Positions 11,661-59,348 of a stretch of DNA of 64,000 nt are shown piece by piece (position 1 is the first letter of the stretch; each line of letters begins with the position of its first letter). The notes beneath the pieces are model-generated. The model ran no database searches. It was given only the letters and a program-made list of their open reading frames with translations, and was not told where the DNA came from. Location: the NCBI RefSeq assembly GCF_048403405.1, contig NZ_CP183129.1; one strand, written 5' to 3'. Position numbers and translations under genes: made by a program. Origin of the DNA: Escherichia coli. Lineage in GTDB: Bacteria > Pseudomonadota > Gammaproteobacteria > Enterobacterales > Enterobacteriaceae.

Positions 11661-13925
11661 CTACCCGTTATCCACTGGCACGCCAAACCACTGATGATAC
11701 CAACGAGGTAAAATTTGCTCCCTGAAGCTGCTAATCCGCCAGCCTTGCGCTGAAAAATTGACCGTCATTTGCCCCTGATGAGGAGTATCAAGCCACTTAT
11801 AACCCTGTTGTTGATAGCGATGTTTAACTTTGCTTGAGGGCAGTCGCCATGCGTTATAGCGCGATGCCGATGCGAGTGCCACTTTTCCATTCACTCGCTG
11901 AATTAATGGCAACGATGATGAGGTATTACTGCCATGGTGAGGTACCTGAAGTAATGTTGCCTGCATTTGCTGCCAGTAACGGCTTAGCATCTTTTGTTCA
12001 GCGGGGGCTTCAATATCACCGGTTAGAAGAATGCTATTCGTCCCGTCATCAATCTTAACCACACAGGAATGGTTATTTCCTTTATCGTTGCTACCTTGTA
12101 AAGGCCAGTGCGCGCTGAAACTCAATCCTTGCCATTGCCACGCTTCGCCACGCACACAGGGCTGATGATGTTCCCAGTTTAACGGACTTCTGATCCATAA
12201 CATCGGCCATGTATGCAATATTGAGTCCAGCCCTCCCCGGTGATCCAGATGTTCATGACTCAGAATAACGCCTTCCGGTTCAAGATTATGCCAGTGGAGC
12301 CAGGGGATAATCAGTTGTTGCCCACTATCCCCTTCGGGCCAGGCCAGTCCCGTGTCATAGAGAATCGCTTTGCCGTTTCTGGCTATCACCATTGCCAGCC
12401 CTTGCCCGACATCAAGCATGTACACTTGCCACTCGTCAGGTCGAGGTTTTTGCCACAGCGGCCAGCACATCAGCAAGCCTACAGCCACACACATTGCTGG
12501 CAACGTTCGCCAGGCGTTTAATCGCCATACCACCAGTAAGAACCATGGGGAAAATGTTAGCCATTGCCAACGTTCAGCAATGTTGATCCACCCTTCCGGC
12601 AAACTCTTTAACCCCCAGAAAAGTAAAGCCAAAGACCGGTCGGCAAGAAACCATAATCCTTGTTCCAGAATAAGCGGCCCGCTTAAATGCACAACCATCG
12701 CGGCGAGGATCAACGGAACCGTGATAAATGTCACCAGGGGAATTGCAAAAAGATTTGCAATAAACGAGGTCAGACTAATGCCATGAAATATGACGATTTG
12801 CACGGGCATAAGCAGGAGGGTGATTCCCAGTTGCAGATGGATGAGGGAAACAACCGCACGCAATACCGGCGGCAGCTGCCACTCAGGACAGGGAAACCAC
12901 TGATACCAAAAAATCAGTGCCGCGACCGCAGCGGCAGAGAGCCATAAACTTTGCGAGAGAATGGCAACAGGATCCATCAACAAAATTGCCGCCAGACAAC
13001 ATATCCATACATCCCAGCCACTCCATTGTCGCCCACTTAACTTAAGCATTCCCCACATGGCAAGCGCCACCACGGTACGCAATGCAGGAGGTTGCATCCC
13101 AGTCAGCCAGGCATAAAAAGCAGCACAGCAGATTCCGCCAATTAATGGCATTTGCCATTGGATCCAGCGCCCGGGCAGAAAAACTTGCCCACCGCGAATG
13201 AGTCCGGCAGCCAGCAACGCCGCAAAAGCGATATGCAATCCCGATATCGCCATTAAATGCGCCGTTCCAGTATCGCGCATGATATTTTTGATTTCTTTGG
13301 GAACGGATAACCGTTCCCCCATACCTAAACCAAGAATAACCGCATTCCACATATAGGGTTGCAGCGTTGTTTGTAGTGACGCCAGATACTGTGCACGCAG
13401 GCTACAATTCGGTTCAATGACACTTGCCTGCAGAAATCGGCCGGTGAGCGGCTGATGCTGGGCAATGGCATAACGCTGGCTATCAAAGCCGCCATCATTA
13501 AGTTGGCCATGAACTGCACGAACTTTGAGTTTCATTGACCACAGTTGTCCAGCACAAACCGCTTGCGGAAGATATTCGCCATACAGCACGAGGCCTGGCG
13601 CAGGGAATATACGTCGACCTTGTAGATGAGTAATTTGACCGTAATGAGTGGTCATACCGTCAGTAGCAGTGATCTCAACAATTGCATCCTGCGTCGCGCC
13701 AGTTAACGTTTCTCCTGCCCACAAAATTTGCTTTGCTGCTAATATGCCCCAAACGAAAAACAGCAACGTCAGCGCGATATAACGGACAGTTTTAAAAGGG
13801 ATAAATACCAGTACGCAGGCGAAGACGGTCAGAGACGCAAGGGTTAATGTCCCAGGCAATTGTGGCAAAACCAGCAACGGAAAAATTCCGCAAATTATGC
13901 ATACGCCGACTGTCGTTATTTTCAT
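11661..13925 (-). CDS. ycaI: ComEC/Rec2-family inner membrane protein YcaI
   Basis: ORF 11661..14003; polytopic membrane N-terminus plus C-terminal metallo-beta-lactamase-like HxHxDH region; start placed at ATG 13925-13923 (MKITTVG...), 754 aa. Confidence 0.88.
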   Translation of the reverse strand: MKITTVGVCIICGIFPLLVLPQLPGTLTLASLTVFACVLVFIPFKTVRYIALTLLFFVWGILAAKQILWAGETLTGATQDAIVEITATDGMTTHYGQITHLQGRRIFPAPGLVLYGEYLPQAVCAGQLWSMKLKVRAVHGQLNDGGFDSQRYAIAQHQPLTGRFLQASVIEPNCSLRAQYLASLQTTLQPYMWNAVILGLGMGERLSVPKEIKNIMRDTGTAHLMAISGLHIAFAALLAAGLIRGGQVFLPGRWIQWQMPLIGGICCAAFYAWLTGMQPPALRTVVALAMWGMLKLSGRQWSGWDVWICCLAAILLMDPVAILSQSLWLSAAAVAALIFWYQWFPCPEWQLPPVLRAVVSLIHLQLGITLLLMPVQIVIFHGISLTSFIANLFAIPLVTFITVPLILAAMVVHLSGPLILEQGLWFLADRSLALLFWGLKSLPEGWINIAERWQWLTFSPWFLLVVWRLNAWRTLPAMCVAVGLLMCWPLWQKPRPDEWQVYMLDVGQGLAMVIARNGKAILYDTGLAWPEGDSGQQLIIPWLHWHNLEPEGVILSHEHLDHRGGLDSILHTWPMLWIRSPLNWEHHQPCVRGEAWQWQGLSFSAHWPLQGSNDKGNNHSCVVKIDDGTNSILLTGDIEAPAEQKMLSRYWQQMQATLLQVPHHGSNTSSSLPLIQRVNGKVALASASRYNAWRLPSSKVKHRYQQQGYKWLDTPHQGQMTVNFSAQGWRISSFREQILPRWYHQWFGVPVDNG

Positions 13926-14080
13926 GCACCCCTCCCTGTTTATGGAAAGTGTGCAACTTTGTTGAGCGGTTGTCTGGTGGGAGTTTTGCGTTCCCCGAGG
14001 CACGTTCAGAAGAATTTAACGAGAGGGTGAAAACTGTTCAAAACTCTGCGAGGCTGCTTCCAGTTCCAGATTAGAGAAAT

Positions 14081-14103
14081 GAAAAAAGCACCCGACAGGT
14101 GCT
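14081..14103 (-). terminator. intrinsic terminator hairpin downstream of ihfB
   Basis: Inverted repeat AGCACC / GGTGCT with U-run on the minus-strand transcript, 30 nt after the ihfB stop. Confidence 0.55.
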
Positions 14104-14131
14104 TTTCTCGCGTTCAAGTTTGAGTAAAAAC

Positions 14132-14416
14132 TTAACCGTAAATATTGGCGCGATCGCGCAGTTCTTTACCTGGTTTAAAGTGAGGAACGTATTTTCCTTC
14201 CAGTTCTACTTTATCGCCAGTCTTCGGATTACGTCCGGTACGTGGTGCGCGGTAGTGCAAAGAGAAACTGCCGAAACCGCGGATTTCAATACGCTCGCCC
14301 TGCGCAAGAGTCGAGGCCATATGCTCCAGCATCTCTTTTACTGCATCTTCAACCGTCTTGGCGGGAATGTGCGATTGCTGGGTGGCAAGTCTTTCTATCA
14401 ATTCTGACTTGGTCAT
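14132..14416 (-). CDS. ihfB: integration host factor subunit beta
   Basis: 94-aa [14 protein letters not shown]...; matches IHF-beta. Confidence 0.97.
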
Positions 14417-14470
14417 GATTCCTCCGGTTCCTTAAAGGCAAATTAAGCGGCTGCTGTTGCTGCATTGATT

Positions 14471-14492
14471 AAGGGCGGCCGTAGCCGCCCTT
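14471..14492 (-). terminator. hairpin in rpsA-ihfB intergenic region (candidate partial terminator)
   Basis: Perfect inverted repeat AAGGGCGGC-cgta-GCCGCCCTT downstream of rpsA stop; no strong U-run. Confidence 0.4.
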
Positions 14493-14575
14493 AGTGCTTG
14501 ATTACAGGACGAAACCTGCAATCTGTCAAGTAAACTCAACAAACTTCGGAATAAAAATCCCGAAGAGTCAGAGAA

Positions 14576-16249
14576 TTACTCGCCTTTAGCTGCTTTGAAA
14601 GCTTCAGCCATTGCGTTGTTGGAGAAGTTTGCATCTTCCTGTTTGTTAACAGTTGCGATTGCATCTTTCTCGTCAGCTTCGTCTTTCGCACGAACAGACA
14701 GGCTGATTGCGCGGTTTTTACGATCAACGCCGGTGAATTTAGCTTCAACTTCGTCGCCAACGCTCAGAACCAGGGTAGCGTCTTCAACGCGGTCACGGGA
14801 TGCTTCAGAAGCACGCAGGTAACCTTCAACGCCGTCAGCCAGTTCTACGGTTGCGCCTTTAGCGTCAACTGCAGTTACTTTACCGGTTACGATAGCGCCT
14901 TTCTTGTTCAGAGCAACCCAGTTGTTGAACGGATCTTCTGCGAGCTGTTTAACGCCCAGGGAGATACGTTCACGTTCTGCGTCAACCTGCAGAACAACTG
15001 CAGCGATTTCGTCGCCTTTTTTGTATTCACGAACTGCTTCTTCGCCTGCAACGTTCCAGGAGATGTCAGACAGGTGAACCAGGCCGTCGATGCCGCCGTC
15101 AAGGCCGATGAAGATACCGAAGTCAGTGATAGACTTGATTTTACCTTCAACACGGTCACCCTTGTTGTGGGTTTCCGCGAACTGCTGCCACGGGTTAGCT
15201 TTGCACTGTTTCAGACCCAGGGAGATACGACGACGTTCTTCGTCGATATCCAGAACCATAACTTCCACTACATCGCCAACGTTAACAACTTTGGACGGGT
15301 GGATGTTTTTGTTGGTCCAATCCATTTCGGAAACGTGTACCAGGCCTTCAACGCCTTCTTCGATTTCAACGAAGCAGCCGTAGTCGGTCAGGTTGGTCAC
15401 GCGACCAGTCAGTTTGGTACCTTCCGGATAACGTTTAGCGATAGCTACCCACGGATCTTCGCCCAGCTGTTTCAGGCCCAGGGATACACGGGTACGTTCG
15501 CGGTCGAACTTCAGCACTTTAACAGTGATTTCGTCGCCAACGTTGACGATTTCGCTCGGATGCTTAACGCGTTTCCAGGCCATGTCAGTGATGTGCAGCA
15601 GGCCGTCAACGCCGCCCAGATCAACGAATGCACCGTAGTCAGTGAGGTTCTTAACGATACCTTTAACTTCCATGCCTTCCTGCAGGTTTTCCAGCAGCTG
15701 ATCGCGCTCTGCGCTGTTTTCGGATTCGATAACGGCACGACGAGAAACAACAACGTTGTTGCGCTTCTGATCCAGCTTGATTACTTTGAATTCAAGCTCT
15801 TTGCCTTCCAGGTGCAGAGTGTCACGCACCGGACGAACGTCTACCAGAGAACCTGGCAGGAACGCACGAATACCGTTCAGCTCAACAGTGAAGCCGCCCT
15901 TAACTTTGCCGTTGATAACACCGGTAACAGTTTCAGCATCTTCGTAAGCTTTTTCCAGCGTGATCCAGGCTTCGTGACGTTTAGCTTTCTCACGGGACAG
16001 CAGAGTTTCACCGAAGCCGTCTTCTACTGCGTCCAGAGCAACGTCAACTTCGTCACCTACCTGGATTTCCAGCTCGCCCTGGGCGTTTTTGAACTGCTCA
16101 GCCGGGATGGCGGACTCAGATTTCAGACCAGCGTCAACCAGTACTACGTCTTTGTCGATAGCAACAACAACGCCACGAACGATAGAACCCGGGCGGGTTT
16201 CGATTTCTTTTAAGGACTCTTCAAAGAGTTGAGCAAAAGATTCAGTCAT
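14576..16249 (-). CDS. rpsA: 30S ribosomal protein S1
   Basis: 557-aa ORF with repeated S1 domains; [27 protein letters not shown]-terminus. Confidence 0.97.
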
Positions 16250-51344: not shown

Positions 51345-52363
51345 TGAGCAAGAAAAAAGGGAAAACACCGCAACCTGCGGCAAAAAAAATGACCGCCAGC
51401 GCCCCGAAAATGGAGGCATTCACCTTTGGCGAGCCGGTGCCGGTACTCGACCGCCGTGACATTCTGGATTACGTCGAGTGCATCAGTAACGGCAGATGGT
51501 ATGAGCCGCCGGTCAGCTTTACCGGTCTGGCGAAAAGCCTGCGTGCTGCCGTGCATCACAGCTCGCCGATTTACGTCAAACGCAATATTCTGGCCTCGAC
51601 ATTTATCCCGCATCCGTGGCTTTCCCAGCAGGATTTCAGCCGCTTTGTGCTGGATTTTCTGGTGTTCGGTAATGCGTTTCTGGAAAAGCGTTACAGCACC
51701 ACCGGTAAGGTCATCAGACTGGAAACCTCACCGGCAAAATATACCCGCCGTGGCGTGGAGGAGGATGTTTACTGGTGGGTGCCGTCCTTCAACGAGCCGA
51801 CAGCCTTCGCGCCCGGCTCCGTGTTTCACCTGCTGGAGCCGGATATCAATCAGGAGCTGTACGGCCTGCCGGAATATCTCAGCGCCCTTAACTCTGCCTG
51901 GCTGAATGAGTCGGCCACGCTGTTCCGCCGCAAGTATTACGAAAACGGCGCTCATGCCGGATACATCATGTATGTCACCGATGCCGTGCAGGATCGCAAC
52001 GATATCGAAATGCTTCGCGAAAACATGGTGAAGTCGAAAGGCCGCAACAACTTTAAAAACCTGTTTCTCTATGCCCCACAGGGGAAAGCCGACGGCATTA
52101 AAATTATCCCCCTCAGTGAAGTGGCGACGAAGGACGATTTTTTTAATATCAAAAAAGTCAGCGCCGCAGATCTCCTGGACGCACACCGCATCCCCTTTCA
52201 GTTGATGGGCGGTAAGCCGGAGAATGTCGGGTCACTAGGAGATATTGAAAAAGTGGCAAAGGTCTTTGTCCGCAATGAACTCACTCCATTACAGGAGAGA
52301 ATAAAGTCAATAAATGAATGGTTAGATATGGAAGTCATAAAATCCCTTGATTATAACTTATAA
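51344..52363 (+). CDS. Q: portal protein Q
   Basis: 339-aa ORF overlapping the P stop; P2 order. Confidence 0.88.
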   Translation: MSKKKGKTPQPAAKKMTASAPKMEAFTFGEPVPVLDRRDILDYVECISNGRWYEPPVSFTGLAKSLRAAVHHSSPIYVKRNILASTFIPHPWLSQQDFSRFVLDFLVFGNAFLEKRYSTTGKVIRLETSPAKYTRRGVEEDVYWWVPSFNEPTAFAPGSVFHLLEPDINQELYGLPEYLSALNSAWLNESATLFRRKYYENGAHAGYIMYVTDAVQDRNDIEMLRENMVKSKGRNNFKNLFLYAPQGKADGIKIIPLSEVATKDDFFNIKKVSAADLLDAHRIPFQLMGGKPENVGSLGDIEKVAKVFVRNELTPLQERIKSINEWLDMEVIKSLDYNL

Positions 52364-52375
52364 GTAAATATATAA

Positions 52376-52402
52376 AGTTGGCGGAATGCAATCCCGCCAA
52401 CT
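52376..52402. terminator. bidirectional terminator hairpin between Q and the convergent RT-module
   Basis: AGTTGGCGG-(loop)-CCGCCAACT between convergent genes. Confidence 0.5.
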
Positions 52403-52405
52403 TAA

Positions 52406-53113
52406 CTATATATACTTCCTTTTTACTCTACTTAATTCTATCACTGATGAGGAGTGACAAAATGACAAATTAATAGTATCGATATAATCCAAAATTTGAC
52501 TCTCAACCTCAATAAAAATATTTTTGGGCCCATTACTAATCGATATACCGATTTCATCCAAAACAGCCATCATTTTTCTCTGATGAGTTTTATATTTATA
52601 GTCTTTATTTTCCTCTGTAATATGTGCATTGGCTTCCTCAATAACACATTTGATTCTAGATATTATTTCTAGATAATCTCTCGAAACAGATATATCACCG
52701 CCTTGCGCTTCAGGGAACATAACCCTATACCATCTAAAAAAATTAACTTTCTCTGGATAGATGCTACTTCTTTTAGTTAACTCAGCACTTGCAAATTCTC
52801 TAAACATCGTCAGATGACTAGTGTAATTACTATTATTATTATTTTTAACTCCAGCGTTATATGTCATCAAAGCAATCATAACACCAAAAACGGTAACAAA
52901 AGTTGTTATAAGCCATCCAAACGCCTGAAAATACATTACTATACCAGATGTTTTTTCCGCAAAAAATTTTAAGCACTGGCTATCGAAGCATATATCACGC
53001 TCATATAGCTTTTCATTCTGAATAGTTTCAAAAAGAGAAATTAGCGAAAAAATCAAAAAAAGAGCTGACGACACACCGACAATATATTTGAGAAGTCTAA
53101 TATTTGCATTCAT
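52406..53113 (-). CDS. 2-TM membrane protein, translationally coupled to the upstream reverse transcriptase (candidate effector)
   Basis: 235 aa; start ATG overlaps the RT stop (ATGA at 53113-53110); two N-terminal hydrophobic helices; AT-rich. Confidence 0.6.
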   Translation of the reverse strand: MNANIRLLKYIVGVSSALFLIFSLISLFETIQNEKLYERDICFDSQCLKFFAEKTSGIVMYFQAFGWLITTFVTVFGVMIALMTYNAGVKNNNNSNYTSHLTMFREFASAELTKRSSIYPEKVNFFRWYRVMFPEAQGGDISVSRDYLEIISRIKCVIEEANAHITEENKDYKYKTHQRKMMAVLDEIGISISNGPKNIFIEVESQILDYIDTINLSFCHSSSVIELSRVKRKYI

Positions 53114-54384
53114 AATGGTTTTAAAGATGCCAATCTAGATTTAAAACACTCCAGTTTTTCTTTAAATGATTCAGAGCGAGTAAGAATAATCATCTTATAT
53201 CTCGTCAAATCATATTTTCTTTTATACCAATGTTTATTTTGATTACCTTTCGAATACGACAACTCTAAACTTTTTATAGCTGCATCAATCACAGCAACAT
53301 CTCTTTTAGATGGCATCGGTTTTATTGCCTGCAACTGTTTCTTGAATGATTCATATTTTTCATGCCCAACACGGCCAAGCTTATTCACTCTCCCCATACA
53401 TCTATTGAATTCTTTTCTGTATGCAACACTTGTTTTTGTGTTATTTTTTGCCGCCAGTAATTTCAAATTATGTATAGATGCCCTGATTCTTTTGACTTCA
53501 TCGGATGGTAGTCGAGGTGAGTCATAGTCAACTCTTAAACCATGTACTTTTATAGGTTCAGATGAACAGTGAAATATTTTTGTTTTGTGCTTATTTATCG
53601 GCAAGTCATGCTCAGAAAGCATCCTCTCTATATGGCTTTGCATTTGAGAAAAATCATAATTACTTATTTTAGATGACACGGTAATATCATCTACCAAACG
53701 CGTATAAACAAGTCCTTTCCTCTGCGCACGTCTTACCACATCCCCTTCAACAGCGAATAAACACAAAGTTGCTATATAGCTTGATGTTAAGGCCCCCTGT
53801 ACGACAAAATCATCCTTAGTACATATATCCACCAAGTATTCAAGAGCCTCATCCTTAATATGCAATATCTCCTCAAACACGCTCCTAACCAGATCTCTAT
53901 GGATATTATCGAAAAAATTACTTATATCCACCTTGAGAACTGTTTTTGCTCCACAATGAGCCTTTGCACATGAAACATAGTCACGTTTGACATTAGAATT
54001 TAAAACATCATTTTTACTGGGAACTGAACCAAACAAAAATGAAGGAAAAACAACCAATTCCTTAAAAATACGTTTATTAATTCTACTCTGTAATAATCTC
54101 ATTTTAGGATGTAGGGAGTAGACAATCCGTTTGCTTCCGTCAATTTTGGGAATTTCTTTTAGAGTATATTTCTCATCTAATGATAATTCTGCAATAGCTT
54201 TAAGCTCTTCAACAGAAATCGATAAAGCCTTTGACAACTTTTCAAGTGTTGTGATAGGAGCATTGGATTTGCTGTATGGTTTAAATTTATCCATAAACAT
54301 ACCATTCAAATTCAAAGTTACGTACGGTCTTCCCATACTCAAGGGTGGAACAGCAGAGATGCTTACATCAACAATTGTCAGCAA
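53110..54384 (-). CDS. retron-type reverse transcriptase with about 100-aa C-terminal extension
   Basis: RT motifs IPKIDGSKRIVY, CAKAHCGAKTVLKVDISNFFDNI, QGALTSSYIATLCL, YTRLVDDITV (YxDD), IKVHGL. Track start is TTG 54384; in-frame ATGs at 54336, 54300, 54294. Confidence 0.75.
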   Translation of the reverse strand: MLTIVDVSISAVPPLSMGRPYVTLNLNGMFMDKFKPYSKSNAPITTLEKLSKALSISVEELKAIAELSLDEKYTLKEIPKIDGSKRIVYSLHPKMRLLQSRINKRIFKELVVFPSFLFGSVPSKNDVLNSNVKRDYVSCAKAHCGAKTVLKVDISNFFDNIHRDLVRSVFEEILHIKDEALEYLVDICTKDDFVVQGALTSSYIATLCLFAVEGDVVRRAQRKGLVYTRLVDDITVSSKISNYDFSQMQSHIERMLSEHDLPINKHKTKIFHCSSEPIKVHGLRVDYDSPRLPSDEVKRIRASIHNLKLLAAKNNTKTSVAYRKEFNRCMGRVNKLGRVGHEKYESFKKQLQAIKPMPSKRDVAVIDAAIKSLELSYSKGNQNKHWYKRKYDLTRYKMIILTRSESFKEKLECFKSRLASLKPL

Positions 54385-54625
54385 CAGCCTCTGCTATCTT
54401 TCGACCGTACGTAATGTCGTCGGCTACGGCACCATCGTAGTTGACGACGGTGGGGCCTCGCTGATAGGTCCATAGTGGACGCTTTTTTGTAAAAGCAAAA
54501 ACTGACAATTTAATGTTGTTGACTGCCGCATACCAAGCGAATCGCTGGTGCGCTAAGAATAATGCAACAAAAAAATAAGAATTTCAACCGGGTAACTGCA
54601 AGCCAGCGACATCGTTTAGCGCGCA

Positions 54626-54644
54626 GTGCTTTCCCCGCCTCGCC
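54626..54644. other. phage cos site (19-nt cohesive-end sequence)
   Basis: GTGCTTTCCCCGCCTCGCC is the reverse complement of the P2 cohesive end GGCGAGGCGGGGAAAGCAC as I recall it; located between Q and the A-side genes as in P2. Confidence 0.7.
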
Positions 54645-54805
54645 CGCCCGCTTCGTGGGGCGGTTTTAATGCAGGTGCAATACCGCTTTTGAGCCACGCC
54701 CGTCCTGGCGGACGCACGGCCGGAACATGCAACTCCGGCACATGCAAAACCATGCACATATTGCACGCAGAAAGATAAATGCCAAAATACCTAAATCAAC
54801 TTCCA

Positions 54806-56644
54806 TTAATCAGCCAGATAAGGTTCAACTTTATCTTCCCATACACTAAATAAAGGCAAACAAGTTAAATAAAAGATAAAGACACAGGCAAAAACTGAAG
54901 TTGGTTGATAACAATGATTTACAGTATACCTGCCATGAGCCATCGTGTGTCTAATTGCAGCACCACCTTTCATATTGAACAATAAATCCATAGTCAATAC
55001 ATGATCACTATCAAAAACACCTTCCATTTCACTCCTATAATTTGCAAGCATTTGAGATAGGCTAGTAGCCTCCTCAAAAAGCGACACATCTATTTTCGTT
55101 GTTTCTTTTCTTCTTAATTCTAAAATCCATCTAATTGAATTCTCCAATTGCGGCAATAACAAATAACAGGCAGACACATAATCTCCCTGCCAAAGCTTAT
55201 AAAACCCCAAAGAAAATATTTCTGCATACCCAGGTGGAACAAATGCACTTTGTTGTGAGATTGGGTCAAATGTATTTTCATTTAATGAATACCTAGCCAA
55301 CACACTTTGCCTAACGACTTCAAACTCACCACAAACATAGACCTGATGCTCAATGTTACTAGTTCTTAAATAATTTGCACAAGCATCATTTAAACTTATA
55401 TCCCCCGCAGGATCCAAAGGTGAACGACTTGCTACAACGCGCCCTCTATCATCATAAACAACCGTTTCACTCATATTAAGAAAAAAATGTTTTTTAGCAT
55501 CGGAACGAGCTCTTTCCATAATTTCACTGGCACTTACAATCTTAAATCTAGCAATTAAAGTTTTAATTACCCTTGAGAAATCCAATTGATTATAAACATG
55601 CTCTTTCTGAGCGATAACATCACTAAGATCCATTGGTATTGCAAAGAAGTGCATTTCATCATTGATTTGATCTCGAATAGAATTCAATTCCTCTCTAATC
55701 TTTTTAATTTCTTCATTCATTCCACCAATTGCTCTAAATTCGCCAAGAGCAACTCTTAACCAATGAGCCTTCAATATTGAAGATGAAGACTGTTCAAATT
55801 GAGCCAATGTTATTTCTGACGCTTTAATTCTGCACCGTCTTCCTTGCTCTTCCATATCGTTTTTAACATATAATTCAGACGCAAAATAAAACAATTTTTT
55901 CACTGCATCAAAATAAGACGCTCCACAATGCTCATCAGCTATCTTTTCTGCATTCTCAGCCAATTGCAAGGGACACAATAAATTATTCTTATAAAGAATT
56001 TCAGAAACTCTTAATACACCGGTGAATATACCAGAGTCTATTAATACATGATATAACCTTAATGTCGAATCAACTATCCCCCCTTGTAGTTGTTTTTTCC
56101 TGCCAATAAGCATGCGCGATATTGCGATACCTCTATCCAAGCAGTCAACAACATCAAAAATATGGATATCACCTGACTCTTGTTTTTCTATTAAAGTATC
56201 GCAAGCATCATTAACCATTAGAGAATATGACTCTATTGCTTTATTGGCAGAGTCTATATCCTTACGGTTATTTATCCATAAAACATCACACACCCTAGAT
56301 ATAATATAAGGATTATCGGAGTTTTCTTTAATACAAGTTAATATTGTTGAAAAACTCTCCTTATAATCTGAAGGCCTATAGCCCCTCTCAGGATAGAGAA
56401 TGATTTTTGGCTCAAAACCGATAATATCACCAGACCTAGAAAATTTAAAATTAAACAACGCACGTAATAAATAGCAAAGCCGCCAAGAACTTACATCGTT
56501 TTTTAGCTTGTAAGATGACAACAACTGAACAAAATAAGACTCCATATCAAAATGAGAATAACTTCTTGGCGATGATAATATACTGGCGTATTCACTTTTT
56601 TTAAAATCATCAACTGAAATAGAAAAAACATCAAACTCGCTCAT
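54806..56644 (-). CDS. large accessory protein of unknown function (612 aa) at the P2 tin/old position
   Basis: ATG 56644 with strong SD AGGTGAGGA; no Walker A or other recognised motif except a possible Rx4H (IRHTMAHGRY) near the C-terminus; AT-rich. Confidence 0.6.
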   Translation of the reverse strand: MSEFDVFSISVDDFKKSEYASILSSPRSYSHFDMESYFVQLLSSYKLKNDVSSWRLCYLLRALFNFKFSRSGDIIGFEPKIILYPERGYRPSDYKESFSTILTCIKENSDNPYIISRVCDVLWINNRKDIDSANKAIESYSLMVNDACDTLIEKQESGDIHIFDVVDCLDRGIAISRMLIGRKKQLQGGIVDSTLRLYHVLIDSGIFTGVLRVSEILYKNNLLCPLQLAENAEKIADEHCGASYFDAVKKLFYFASELYVKNDMEEQGRRCRIKASEITLAQFEQSSSSILKAHWLRVALGEFRAIGGMNEEIKKIREELNSIRDQINDEMHFFAIPMDLSDVIAQKEHVYNQLDFSRVIKTLIARFKIVSASEIMERARSDAKKHFFLNMSETVVYDDRGRVVASRSPLDPAGDISLNDACANYLRTSNIEHQVYVCGEFEVVRQSVLARYSLNENTFDPISQQSAFVPPGYAEIFSLGFYKLWQGDYVSACYLLLPQLENSIRWILELRRKETTKIDVSLFEEATSLSQMLANYRSEMEGVFDSDHVLTMDLLFNMKGGAAIRHTMAHGRYTVNHCYQPTSVFACVFIFYLTCLPLFSVWEDKVEPYLAD

Positions 56645-56798
56645 TCCTCACCTTTAAAGCACTTAACAAACAATCATGGTAAACAATACCAAACTGCAAG
56701 CAACGATTAAATACAGAAAACTCTTTCTGTCGAGATTTTTCAATAACACTAAATATATACAGTACGAAATTATCTAATATTGCGTGAATTTTTGCCAT
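56631..56798 (-). CDS. small hypothetical protein (55 aa) coupling gene A to the 612-aa gene
   Basis: ATG 56798-56796 overlaps the A stop (TAATG); its 3' end overlaps the 612-aa gene start by 14 nt. Confidence 0.35.
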   Translation of the reverse strand: MAKIHAILDNFVLYIFSVIEKSRQKEFSVFNRCLQFGIVYHDCLLSALKVRNERV

Positions 56799-59083
56799 TA
56801 TGTCCACTCCATTACTGTTGAGAATCCCGGCCACTCATCAATGACCGGATACGTGAATTTTTTCCCGCCATAATTTATGGTCGCTCCCCGAGCCAGCGCC
56901 TCAAGCTCCCATCGCTGTGGCCTGATACCGTTCTGAGCAAGGTCAACGCGGATACGGGTAATTTGCATTCGTTCCGACCGGGTCAGTCTGGCCGATGGCG
57001 CTATTTCATGCGGTTTTAACGGGCTTCCGTTTCTTTGCTGACGGTTTGGTCTTCTCAGACCGTGTTTTAATGCACCTCTGAGCGCCCTCACGACCTCCTG
57101 GTCATTCCATTCGATAACACCGTCATCTACCAGATTAAGCACTGCTACGGCGTGTTCAGAAGGCGTGGGAGCCGGTGACGAAGTATCACCACCGGTGAGC
57201 TTTCCACAGTTATTGACAGGACTCCGAGGCGCGGCGATGCCGCTTTTTAAAGTCAACGGCTCAACGACCGGAACTTTCGGCACAATGCGCCAGTCCGTCG
57301 TTCTGGTGATATGAATATGACGCGTGCCGAGATGCGGCGCGTAAATGCCGACCACTCTCTCGACTTCTTCCTCGTACTCGTTAACGTCATCCGACGGGCT
57401 ACGGGCGACCCTGACAGTCTGACAATCGCGCGGGACATTTGCCCCGCCCTGCGCGCTGATATACAACGCAAAATCACCACTGTCTGCGGCGGCGCGTGCA
57501 GCCTCGACGCGTTCGTCAAACTCATCAGCAATGCTGACGCCGCGAGGCAATTTGCGTAGTTCACGGTAAGCCCCCATTGTCGGCAGGCCAACCGTTTTAA
57601 ATTGCGGGATACGCCACGTTGACGCCCATGCGGTAACAGCCGCTGCAGTGTCTTTCAGCGGCCTGCCGGTATCGTTATCGAGCTGACCATCCAGTGCATA
57701 GCCGTCGATATTTTTTGAGATGTATTTCGCGATATATCCCGCAGCACCGCCCCGGTTAAGGTGTTTCGCCTGAAAACGGTTTCGCGCGGCTCCTCTTTCG
57801 TCGCCATCCTCTTTGAGCGCATAGCGACGCATGATTTCGATAATCTGGTTACGCTGGCGTGGATTACAAAAAAGCATCATATGCCAGTGCGGCGTTCCGT
57901 CGTGGTGTGGCTCGACGACTCGCAAACCGTAGACCTGTAAATCATTATCCTTGAATGCCGTGCGCATCAGGCTCCAGATACGGCAGAGATAACGCTGCGC
58001 ATCCTTCGGATTAAATGCCTCATCATTCCAGCCGTGATTAAGCTGCACGGTTTTACTTTCTCCTTTTCCGACCTGACGTGTCGGGTGATACTTTGACGGC
58101 GCGGTCAGCGTGATAAACATCCCCACATCACCCTCTGCGGCGGCGTAACGCTCAATACCGGCGATGGTGTTCATCAGCTCCATCCGGCGAATTTCAGGAT
58201 TAGAAATACTGCCCATCACCTTACTGATAAGGTCGATGCGCTCGCCGGTTTCCCTGTTTTCGAGGTCACACGATTTAAGAAATTCCAGATTTGCCTGGCG
58301 GCGTGCACGCACATCACGAATGGCGTGTTTACTGGCATAAGGAGAACGATCTTTATTGACCTCCCCGACAGCAATCAGTAACGCCTCATGCCAGCGCATA
58401 CGCTGGCCTTTAAGCTGATGAGTCCACCACTCATCGTTAAACAGGCGGGCAATGGCAGAATATGCCTGCCTCGTGGTCATCTGTCCTTTACGGTATTTTT
58501 TCCAGTAGAGCGGGGAAATATTGAAAGCACGTGCAGCGCCAGCAACATGACTATACAGGTGAGCCTGCGCCTCATCCGTAAACAGCGATTCTTTTTCGCC
58601 ATGCGCATCCACCCAGGCATCGCTGAGTTCCTCATACATCATGAAAAGCTGCGATGAGATACGGGCGGCAAACTTTTTCAGCTCCTTGTCATTCATTCCA
58701 GGCAGGCGCGCATAGTGGTCACGCTCTGCCAGAAACAGCAACGACGCGTCGGTGTTCATTTCATGGCGCTGATTCACGCGCTCAATGCGCGGCCATAAAC
58801 GACGCTGAAAAGTGGATGTGAGGAAATAAAACCCGTGTACCGGGCTTTTATTGCGCCGGATGTAGTCATAGCGTGAAGTAAACAGCGAGCGCAAAAAGTA
58901 AGGCAGGCGGTTAATCGTGGATAAAACCCCTTGCACCTGACGCATCTCGTCACGTGTAAGGGGTCTTTCGCGCCCGACGGCCTCGCGTGGCGCGTTCCAT
59001 GCATAAGCACCGGTAAACGTCTTACCGGTGCCTGCGGCAAATGCTGACGGAGGGACAAAACGCCCGGAGGCTTTAACGGCCAT
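56798..59083 (-). CDS. A: replication initiation protein A (rolling-circle nickase)
   Basis: ORF 56798..59125; start placed at ATG 59083 (MAVKASGRFVPP...), 761 aa; catalytic region YIAKYISKNIDGYALDG. Confidence 0.9.
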   Translation of the reverse strand: MAVKASGRFVPPSAFAAGTGKTFTGAYAWNAPREAVGRERPLTRDEMRQVQGVLSTINRLPYFLRSLFTSRYDYIRRNKSPVHGFYFLTSTFQRRLWPRIERVNQRHEMNTDASLLFLAERDHYARLPGMNDKELKKFAARISSQLFMMYEELSDAWVDAHGEKESLFTDEAQAHLYSHVAGAARAFNISPLYWKKYRKGQMTTRQAYSAIARLFNDEWWTHQLKGQRMRWHEALLIAVGEVNKDRSPYASKHAIRDVRARRQANLEFLKSCDLENRETGERIDLISKVMGSISNPEIRRMELMNTIAGIERYAAAEGDVGMFITLTAPSKYHPTRQVGKGESKTVQLNHGWNDEAFNPKDAQRYLCRIWSLMRTAFKDNDLQVYGLRVVEPHHDGTPHWHMMLFCNPRQRNQIIEIMRRYALKEDGDERGAARNRFQAKHLNRGGAAGYIAKYISKNIDGYALDGQLDNDTGRPLKDTAAAVTAWASTWRIPQFKTVGLPTMGAYRELRKLPRGVSIADEFDERVEAARAAADSGDFALYISAQGGANVPRDCQTVRVARSPSDDVNEYEEEVERVVGIYAPHLGTRHIHITRTTDWRIVPKVPVVEPLTLKSGIAAPRSPVNNCGKLTGGDTSSPAPTPSEHAVAVLNLVDDGVIEWNDQEVVRALRGALKHGLRRPNRQQRNGSPLKPHEIAPSARLTRSERMQITRIRVDLAQNGIRPQRWELEALARGATINYGGKKFTYPVIDEWPGFSTVMEWT

Positions 59084-59348
59084 ATGAGCCAAAAGCCTCT
59101 GAACAACGCTTGCTGAGTTGCTCAACCTGCGCGTTTAAATCAGCAAAAGACTTTGCGCTTCCGGTCAGAATATCGTGATGCATCAGGCCGGAAACGAGCT
59201 GGCTTAATTTCGGGTAATAACCAACCACCGCCAGCCATTCCTGACCGGCGTTTTTACCGCTTTCCGCTCTCTTTTTCTCGTGGAGAATAAACTGAAAGCT
59301 GTCACTGGTAACGACATAACGTTCGCCAATTTCAATACGAATGCTCAT
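59073..59348 (-). CDS. hypothetical early protein (P2 orf83 position)
   Basis: 91-aa ORF in early operon upstream of A. Confidence 0.6.
   Translation of the reverse strand: MSIRIEIGERYVVTSDSFQFILHEKKRAESGKNAGQEWLAVVGYYPKLSQLVSGLMHHDILTGSAKSFADLNAQVEQLSKRCSEAFGSYGR

Follow-up and report, generated by a model that had tools for sequence, protein, structure and literature searches.

The window analysed here, a 64,000-nucleotide stretch of an Escherichia coli genome (contig NZ_CP183129.1), includes P2-like prophage DNA, and all of its genes, domains and motifs described below are on the minus strand. Downstream of replication gene A (56798-59125) lies an ORF for a 612-amino-acid protein (ORF612; 54806-56644, ATG start), which is a member of the DUF7380/DUF4209 family (PADLOC PDC-S39; RefSeq WP_001288417.1; phrog_5183). 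The ORF is preceded by the Shine-Dalgarno sequence AAGGTGAGG (56646-56654), which is evident in the sequence and is annotated as a ribosome-binding site in AM157366.1. A 55-aa ORF (56631-56798; phrog_37811) occupies the space between gene A and ORF612. A first-pass annotation of this DNA had described both ORFs, their overlaps, the Shine-Dalgarno sequence, the low G+C content and an Rx4H motif, and all of these features are present.

ORF612 resides in a low-G+C cassette of ~2.0 kb (54770-56782) that, judging from alignments to P2 and from the G+C profile, stands in place of the orf91-tin-old genes of P2. When 54600-56900 (minus strand) served as the query, matches to P2-like genomes ended at query positions 118 and 2132, and DNA identity to P2 stops at the cassette borders. 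The G+C content is 0.32-0.36 across 54750-56750, compared with 0.51-0.57 in gene A and the P/Q genes. On the far side of the cassette there is an exact copy of the P2 cos cohesive-end 19-mer GGCGAGGCGGGGAAAGCAC (54626-54644), for which zero matches are expected by chance and which aligns to cosR of NC_001895.1. Given this exact match, ORF612 can be assigned to the A-cos slot, which in P2 is occupied by orf91, tin and old; this agrees with the earlier proposal that the gene sits at the tin/old position.

A terminator-like hairpin located ~40 nt past the ORF612 stop codon (54751-54767) was predicted by a consensus scan only. A 46-aa ORF (54666-54806) starts on the ORF612 stop codon (TAATG) and extends into the conserved cos-flanking DNA of P2-like genomes, and we consider it probably spurious. 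A search of 52000-57200 against Rfam gave no match at E ≤ 0.1.

Between cos and the portal gene, the prophage carries an Ec48-type retron composed of a reverse transcriptase and a 2TM effector (52406-54384). The reverse transcriptase matches PADLOC RT_IV at 1e-176, and the effector matches NCBIfam retron_Ec48_2TM with 226.7 bits (cutoff 65). Perfect inverted repeats (54318-54329/54403-54414 and 54373-54381/54502-54510) lie around the untranslated stretch at ~54295-54520 and may bound the msr-msd RNA of the retron; the retron region has no match in Rfam. The A-to-Q hotspot of this prophage comprises two cargo slots split by cos: the slot towards A is taken by ORF612 and the one towards Q by the retron, and the combination of ORF612 with retron Ec48 proteins has also been tabulated previously (Rousset et al. 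2022, PMC9122126). A functional linkage between ORF612 and the retron was rejected, given that cos separates them and that ORF612 occurs without a retron elsewhere (loci L003 and L005), and on the latter ground we treat the two as independent modules.

Between lineages, ORF612 exhibits a dN/dS of ~0.23, which indicates that it is under purifying selection. Together with the existence of full-length homologues ranging from 88% to ~16% identity, this ratio confirms, at the level of sequence comparison, that ORF612 is a real gene and not a chance ORF.

Previous records and relatives of ORF612

The protein had been presented in the first-pass annotation as novel, of unrecognised fold and lacking homology, and these descriptions must be withdrawn. 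ORF612 is 100% identical to the RefSeq protein WP_001288417.1 (cluster P0001), a "DUF7380 domain-containing protein" that is found with exactly the same neighbourhood in E. coli GN02461. At the DNA level, it is 99.9% identical to AM157366.1, which is named "Bacteriophage P2-EC46 proviral ORF612" and derives from ECOR46. The first description of ORF612 is probably that of Odegrip et al. in 2006.

The same sequence is the one given for P2-hotspot system #55 (Pfam "DUF4209"), which has 76 occurrences among 18,150 P2 loci of E. coli, and the related DUF4209 system #13 has 193, for a combined 269 occurrences (Rousset et al. 2022, PMC9122126, Table S5B). ORF612 is absent, by both Pfam name and protein sequence, from the table of evaluated systems in that study. 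In PADLOC-DB v2, profile PDLC05011 of PDC-S39 matches ORF612 at 2e-68 (229.5 bits; residues 8-599, profile positions 7-583 of 595), and profile PDLC05012 matches it at 1e-67. A near full-length match to a profile of a single-gene system makes ORF612 a member of PDC-S39. The PDC systems are 145 untested bioinformatic candidates; according to their authors, they were picked because the genes concerned occur inside BREX, DISARM or type I R-M systems (Payne et al., bioRxiv 10.1101/2024.01.29.577857). PHROGs holds families of unknown function for both ORFs (phrog_5183 and phrog_37811), NCBIfam has no family for either, and the cassette is present in 20 of 5,426 complete E. coli genomes. Our literature search found no phenotype or functional study for ORF612 or for any member of DUF4209 or PDC-S39. 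Given that several resources already flag this gene, we make no claim of discovery: its sequence, hotspot location, DUF4209/HEPN assignment and status as a defence candidate are already known.

A profile search of 1.84 billion representatives recovered 5,870 family representatives (50% identity) at E ≤ 1e-3 and 2,073 at E ≤ 1e-30. The best 150 of the 5,870 are nearly all ~590-660 aa in length and align with ORF612 from end to end. Six relatives with 88, 77, 53, 52, 35 and 32.5% identity to ORF612, carried by prophages, viral contigs and one isolated phage, are all found in the interval from gpA to portal gene Q of P2-like elements, and for this reason we regard the family as recurrent cargo of the P2 hotspot. 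A locus search with a 12-sequence alignment returned P2-like viral contigs only. The P2 locus is an experimentally supported anti-phage hotspot, although some of its cargo, including partition systems and toxins, does not serve defence (Rousset et al. 2022, PMC9122126). Our analyses support the view that ORF612 is a stand-alone accessory cargo gene of the A-cos slot.

More distant members of the family (~16-17% identity) adjoin either KwaA/KwaB and an IS110 element or a SLATT_5 gene, and one distant member, which has no significant pairwise match to ORF612, was found only by the profile search. At loci L015 (9997-11589) and L013 (10028-10363), distant members whose similarity to ORF612 ranges from no significant match to 22% local identity are located directly upstream of kwaA/kwaB or SLATT_5 and beside IS elements. 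We consider the adjacency of distant members to Kiwa and SLATT_5 genes to be anecdotal as evidence of defence. In a separate case, a degraded P2-like prophage with a 52%-identical ORF612 homologue (L008) carries a GmrSD_N-domain gene among its tail genes (13579-14628), and this position may represent a second cargo site.

Predicted architecture of the protein

Remote-homology searches and structure prediction, which the first-pass annotation had suggested as checks, yielded the DUF7380 and PDC-S39 assignments and a predicted HEPN fold. An alignment of 78 sequences, whose members are about 15-88% identical to ORF612, reveals seven invariant residues: R171, G401, P498, E501, R565, H570 and G571. 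AlphaFold2 with this alignment produced a confident, almost all-helical model (pLDDT 93.7, pTM 0.79). The model shows a soluble protein that is predicted to consist of a DUF7380 domain at the N terminus, a SNAP/TPR-like solenoid and, at the C terminus, a domain with the HEPN fold.

The DUF7380 domain (residues 8-184; 56093-56623) matches Pfam PF24098 at E=3.5e-24, and this model is matched by all 78 aligned relatives. In addition to the invariant R171, residues R117, D120, W123, A136 and Y140 of this domain are nearly invariant. DUF7380 is the only Pfam match of ORF612; ATPase and TOPRIM domains are not among its matches, in keeping with the earlier remark that the protein lacks a Walker A or TOPRIM motif. 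An alpha-helical solenoid resembling SNAP, TPR and Rap proteins spans ~residues 97-390 (55475-56356), and we propose that it serves as a sensor or scaffold. It is followed by a conserved beta-hairpin (residues 394-407; 55424-55465) formed by strands E394-397 and E403-407 of the model. Neither the HEPN nor the DUF7380 Pfam model covers the hairpin, yet with G401 it contributes one of the family's few invariant sites; the invariance of the neighbouring R402 holds only for the 12-sequence alignment.

The C-terminal HEPN-fold domain comprises residues 470-612 (54809-55237), of which 500-591 are the equivalent of DUF4209 (PF13910, which appears as 'EMARD_N' in the precomputed Pfam table). Near its end is the sequence IRHTMAHGRY, which includes an Rx4-6H motif of the catalytic HEPN type, R565-x4-H570 (RHTMAH; 54935-54952), followed by G571. 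The codon for R565 is at 54950-54952 and that for H570 is at 54935-54937. A second conserved segment, PQLENSIR (residues 498-505; 55130-55153), was recognized from the alignments and the AlphaFold2 model and is located on a long helix (489-510) opposite the Rx4H motif. In this segment, P498 and E501 are invariant, and Q499 and R505 are nearly so.

ORF612 itself has no PF13910 match at E ≤ 10. Among the 78 aligned relatives, 69 match this model at E ≤ 1e-3; PF13910 is also carried by relatives with 51% identity to ORF612, and the PF13910 domain at positions 505-594 of relative P0011 maps to residues 500-591. Membership of ORF612 in DUF4209 is established through full-length homology and the aligned motif columns, and not through a direct Pfam match. 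DUF4209, the C6orf70 family, is classed as a member of the HEPN superfamily with predicted catalytic activity, and its bacterial members occur in R-M-related operons (Anantharaman et al. 2013, PMC3710099).

When the predicted C-terminal domain was compared with known structures, the highest scores were obtained with the HEPN toxin of a HEPN-MNT pair (7.7), Csm6 (7.7 and 7.6), a chain of AbiA (7.4), SO_3166 (7.2) and the HEPN domain of sacsin (7.2), with lower matches to Csx1, Las1, LsoA/RnlA, MtlR, AbiV and HepS. The matches to soluble HEPN folds extend over 100-117 residues. Profile searches of PDB sequences gave only weak hits to SNAP/TPR proteins with the whole protein and no hit with the C-terminal domain, and solved HEPN structures were not found by sequence profile. 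ORF612 has the two features that characterize the HEPN superfamily, namely an alpha-helical fold (as judged from the predicted structure) and a conserved Rx4-6H motif, and the model has one HEPN domain per chain. The first-pass annotation had offered the Rx4H motif as a tentative hint of a HEPN-like protein, and this hint is confirmed by the predicted-fold matches and by the invariance of the R-x4-H residues and the glutamate. The evidence therefore supports a genuine, invariant HEPN-type motif within a domain that has a predicted HEPN fold.

Possible functions of ORF612

Our preferred reading, to which we assign a probability of roughly 55%, is that ORF612 provides lysogen-expressed exclusion by one protein, in which the DUF7380/solenoid portion would sense a phage and paired HEPN domains would cleave RNA to stop the infection. 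According to this hypothesis, a promoter of its own within the 153-nt leader would drive ORF612 in the lysogen, and the DUF7380 and solenoid part would keep the nuclease inactive while monitoring for a phage-made component. Sensing of this component would cause the HEPN domains of at least two chains to pair their Rx4H motifs and create a composite RNase site. This site would then cleave host or phage RNA, perhaps a tRNA anticodon loop or mRNA, such that the infecting phage would be stopped by growth arrest or abortive infection. The single, prophage-encoded HEPN protein HepS recognizes the tail-tip protein of a phage and cuts tRNAs in their anticodon loops (Sargen et al. 2026, PMC13043305), and mutation of the Rx4-6H histidine of HEC-08 abolishes defence (Payne et al., 10.1101/2024.01.29.577857). 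Of the two parts of the original suggestion that this is a new defence or exclusion protein, a defence or exclusion role is plausible on account of the P2 A-cos-Q hotspot, the PDC-S39 membership and the HEPN motif, and it is the newness that fails, the protein being already catalogued.

One alternative is that ORF612 is a real HEPN-fold accessory protein that serves for something other than the exclusion of other phages. It might, for example, process or regulate RNA on behalf of the prophage or host, interfere with P4-type satellites, or bind a partner without catalysis in the manner of MtlR. Some of the HEPN-fold structural matches, MtlR included, are indeed non-nucleases, which counts against an RNase. 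Regardless, the invariant R-x4-H and glutamate favour catalysis, relatives turn up repeatedly both at defence loci and next to Kiwa or SLATT genes, the family was picked from genes embedded in R-M, BREX or DISARM systems, and the turnover at this hotspot is typical of defence cargo. With these points in mind, we judge a role outside exclusion to be rather unlikely.

A further proposal is that residues 583-603 form a transmembrane helix, by which ORF612 would be anchored in the inner membrane and would act there, either alone or in addition to RNase activity. The 19-residue Kyte-Doolittle mean reaches 2.17 at residues 583-601, a remark of '1 TM' accompanies the system in the tables of Rousset et al. 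(PMC9122126), and C6orf70 has been described with a TM segment (PMC3710099). However, the same alignment columns hold Arg or Lys in distant relatives (IYAWWMILRMVIRS), the hydrophobicity threshold is passed by only 29 of the 78 members, and in the model the segment is the last core helix of a HEPN domain (pLDDT >94) that matches soluble folds as noted above. The distribution of hydrophobicity and of these charged residues led us to reject a family-wide TM segment, and we find it improbable that ORF612 is a membrane-anchored effector.

The preferred reading, exclusion by a sensor-regulated HEPN nuclease, can be extended to the family as a whole, although we do so tentatively and would sooner doubt the extension than rely on it. 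The DUF7380-solenoid-DUF4209 proteins might constitute a very widespread class of one-protein sensor-RNase immunity systems (at least 5,870 clusters at 50% identity), in which the solenoid would bind a phage protein and license HEPN pairing, and which would be the prokaryotic counterpart of the HEPN domain of C6orf70/ERMARD. If this is true, the human disease-linked ERMARD gains a testable RNase mechanism. A positive result that depends on R565 and H570 would add a single-protein HEPN abortive-infection system to HepS and HEC-08, validate a PADLOC candidate, and give biochemists a first entry point to the DUF4209 domain that human ERMARD shares. The interest of ORF612 lies in its membership in a very large HEPN family that has a human homologue and for which no published phenotype was found.

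In the remaining alternative, the small ORF upstream would be translationally coupled to gene A and to ORF612, and its product would regulate a toxic 612-aa protein or act as its antitoxin. The coupling noted in the first-pass annotation reflects real overlaps: the ATG of the 55-aa ORF shares one base with the TAA stop codon of gene A (TAATG), and its TGA stop codon is located 11 nt past the ORF612 ATG, which results in a 14-nt overlap. Phage records also list the small ORF as a gene (phrog_37811). What does not stand is its status as a partner gene. The 16 nt with which it begins (ATGGCAAAAATTCACG, 56783-56798) match the beginning of P2 orf91 (DUF3850) exactly; orf91, too, is coupled to the stop codon of A, and P2 identity ends near 56783. 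In the lineage with the 88%-identical large protein, the small ORF has a 42-nt (14-codon) deletion and has lost its stop codon, and in the 77%-identical Citrobacter lineage the frame has an in-frame stop codon and no start. In L008 and in phage vB_EcoM-569R9, A is separated from the large gene by just 60 and 17 nt, respectively, which leaves no room for a small ORF. Furthermore, its dN/dS is ~0.73 (41 codons), compared with ~0.23 for ORF612, and RefSeq does not annotate it. A toxin-antitoxin pair is expected to have a conserved cognate partner gene adjoining the toxin, and the 55-aa ORF is not such a gene. We therefore reject the toxin-antitoxin or coupled-operon reading as very improbable, because the small ORF is derived from orf91, is disrupted or absent in relatives and has a high dN/dS.

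From these sequence comparisons, the 55-aa ORF is probably a recombination scar in the ORF612 leader, a chimeric remnant in which the start of orf91 is fused to cassette DNA, and not a functional partner. The retained 5′ end of orf91 (56783-56798) marks the left recombination border of the cassette. Note that cassette replacement at the P2 hotspot can leave a spurious small ORF that appears to be translationally coupled, which calls for caution in future scans. A single block of the leader is invariant in all lineages compared, and it contains an extended -10-like element, TGgTATTGT (56683-56691), that was read by eye and might be part of ORF612's own promoter; given that the consensus scan did not list it, we treat this weak candidate only as a lead.

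Comparison with known systems

The P2 exclusion genes tin and old, both of which act in lysogenic conversion, occupy the same A-cos slot as ORF612. Old is an AAA ATPase/exonuclease whose gene is transcribed towards A, whereas ORF612 points in the same direction as A and lacks both ATPase and TOPRIM domains. Homology of ORF612 to Old or Tin was not found, as PADLOC returned only PDC-S39 and Pfam only DUF7380. The HEPN toxins of HEPN-MNT modules and the Csm6/Csx1 proteins (PDB 7ae2, 5yep, 8jbc and 6tug) are 5-19% identical to ORF612, which differs from the former in lacking an MNT antitoxin gene and from the latter in lacking a CARF domain.

With the DUF4209 proteins, including C6orf70 (ERMARD), ORF612 has the conserved Rx4H motif in common, and most of its full-length relatives match PF13910. 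The differences are that ORF612 itself falls below the Pfam model and that eukaryotic members are built differently, for example with TPR, WD40 or a TM segment (PMC3710099). Closer still are systems #55 and #13 of Rousset et al. and ORF612 of P2-EC46, which have been catalogued only; the entry for #55 starts with the identical sequence. PDC-S39 of PADLOC is, like ORF612, a single-gene system, and with a full-length HMM match we see no difference from it at the family level. HepS of the Salmonella Gifsy-1 prophage (PDB 9oik) is a prophage-encoded, single-protein HEPN system of the kind proposed here for ORF612, and by this analogy it may be the best working model for how ORF612 acts.
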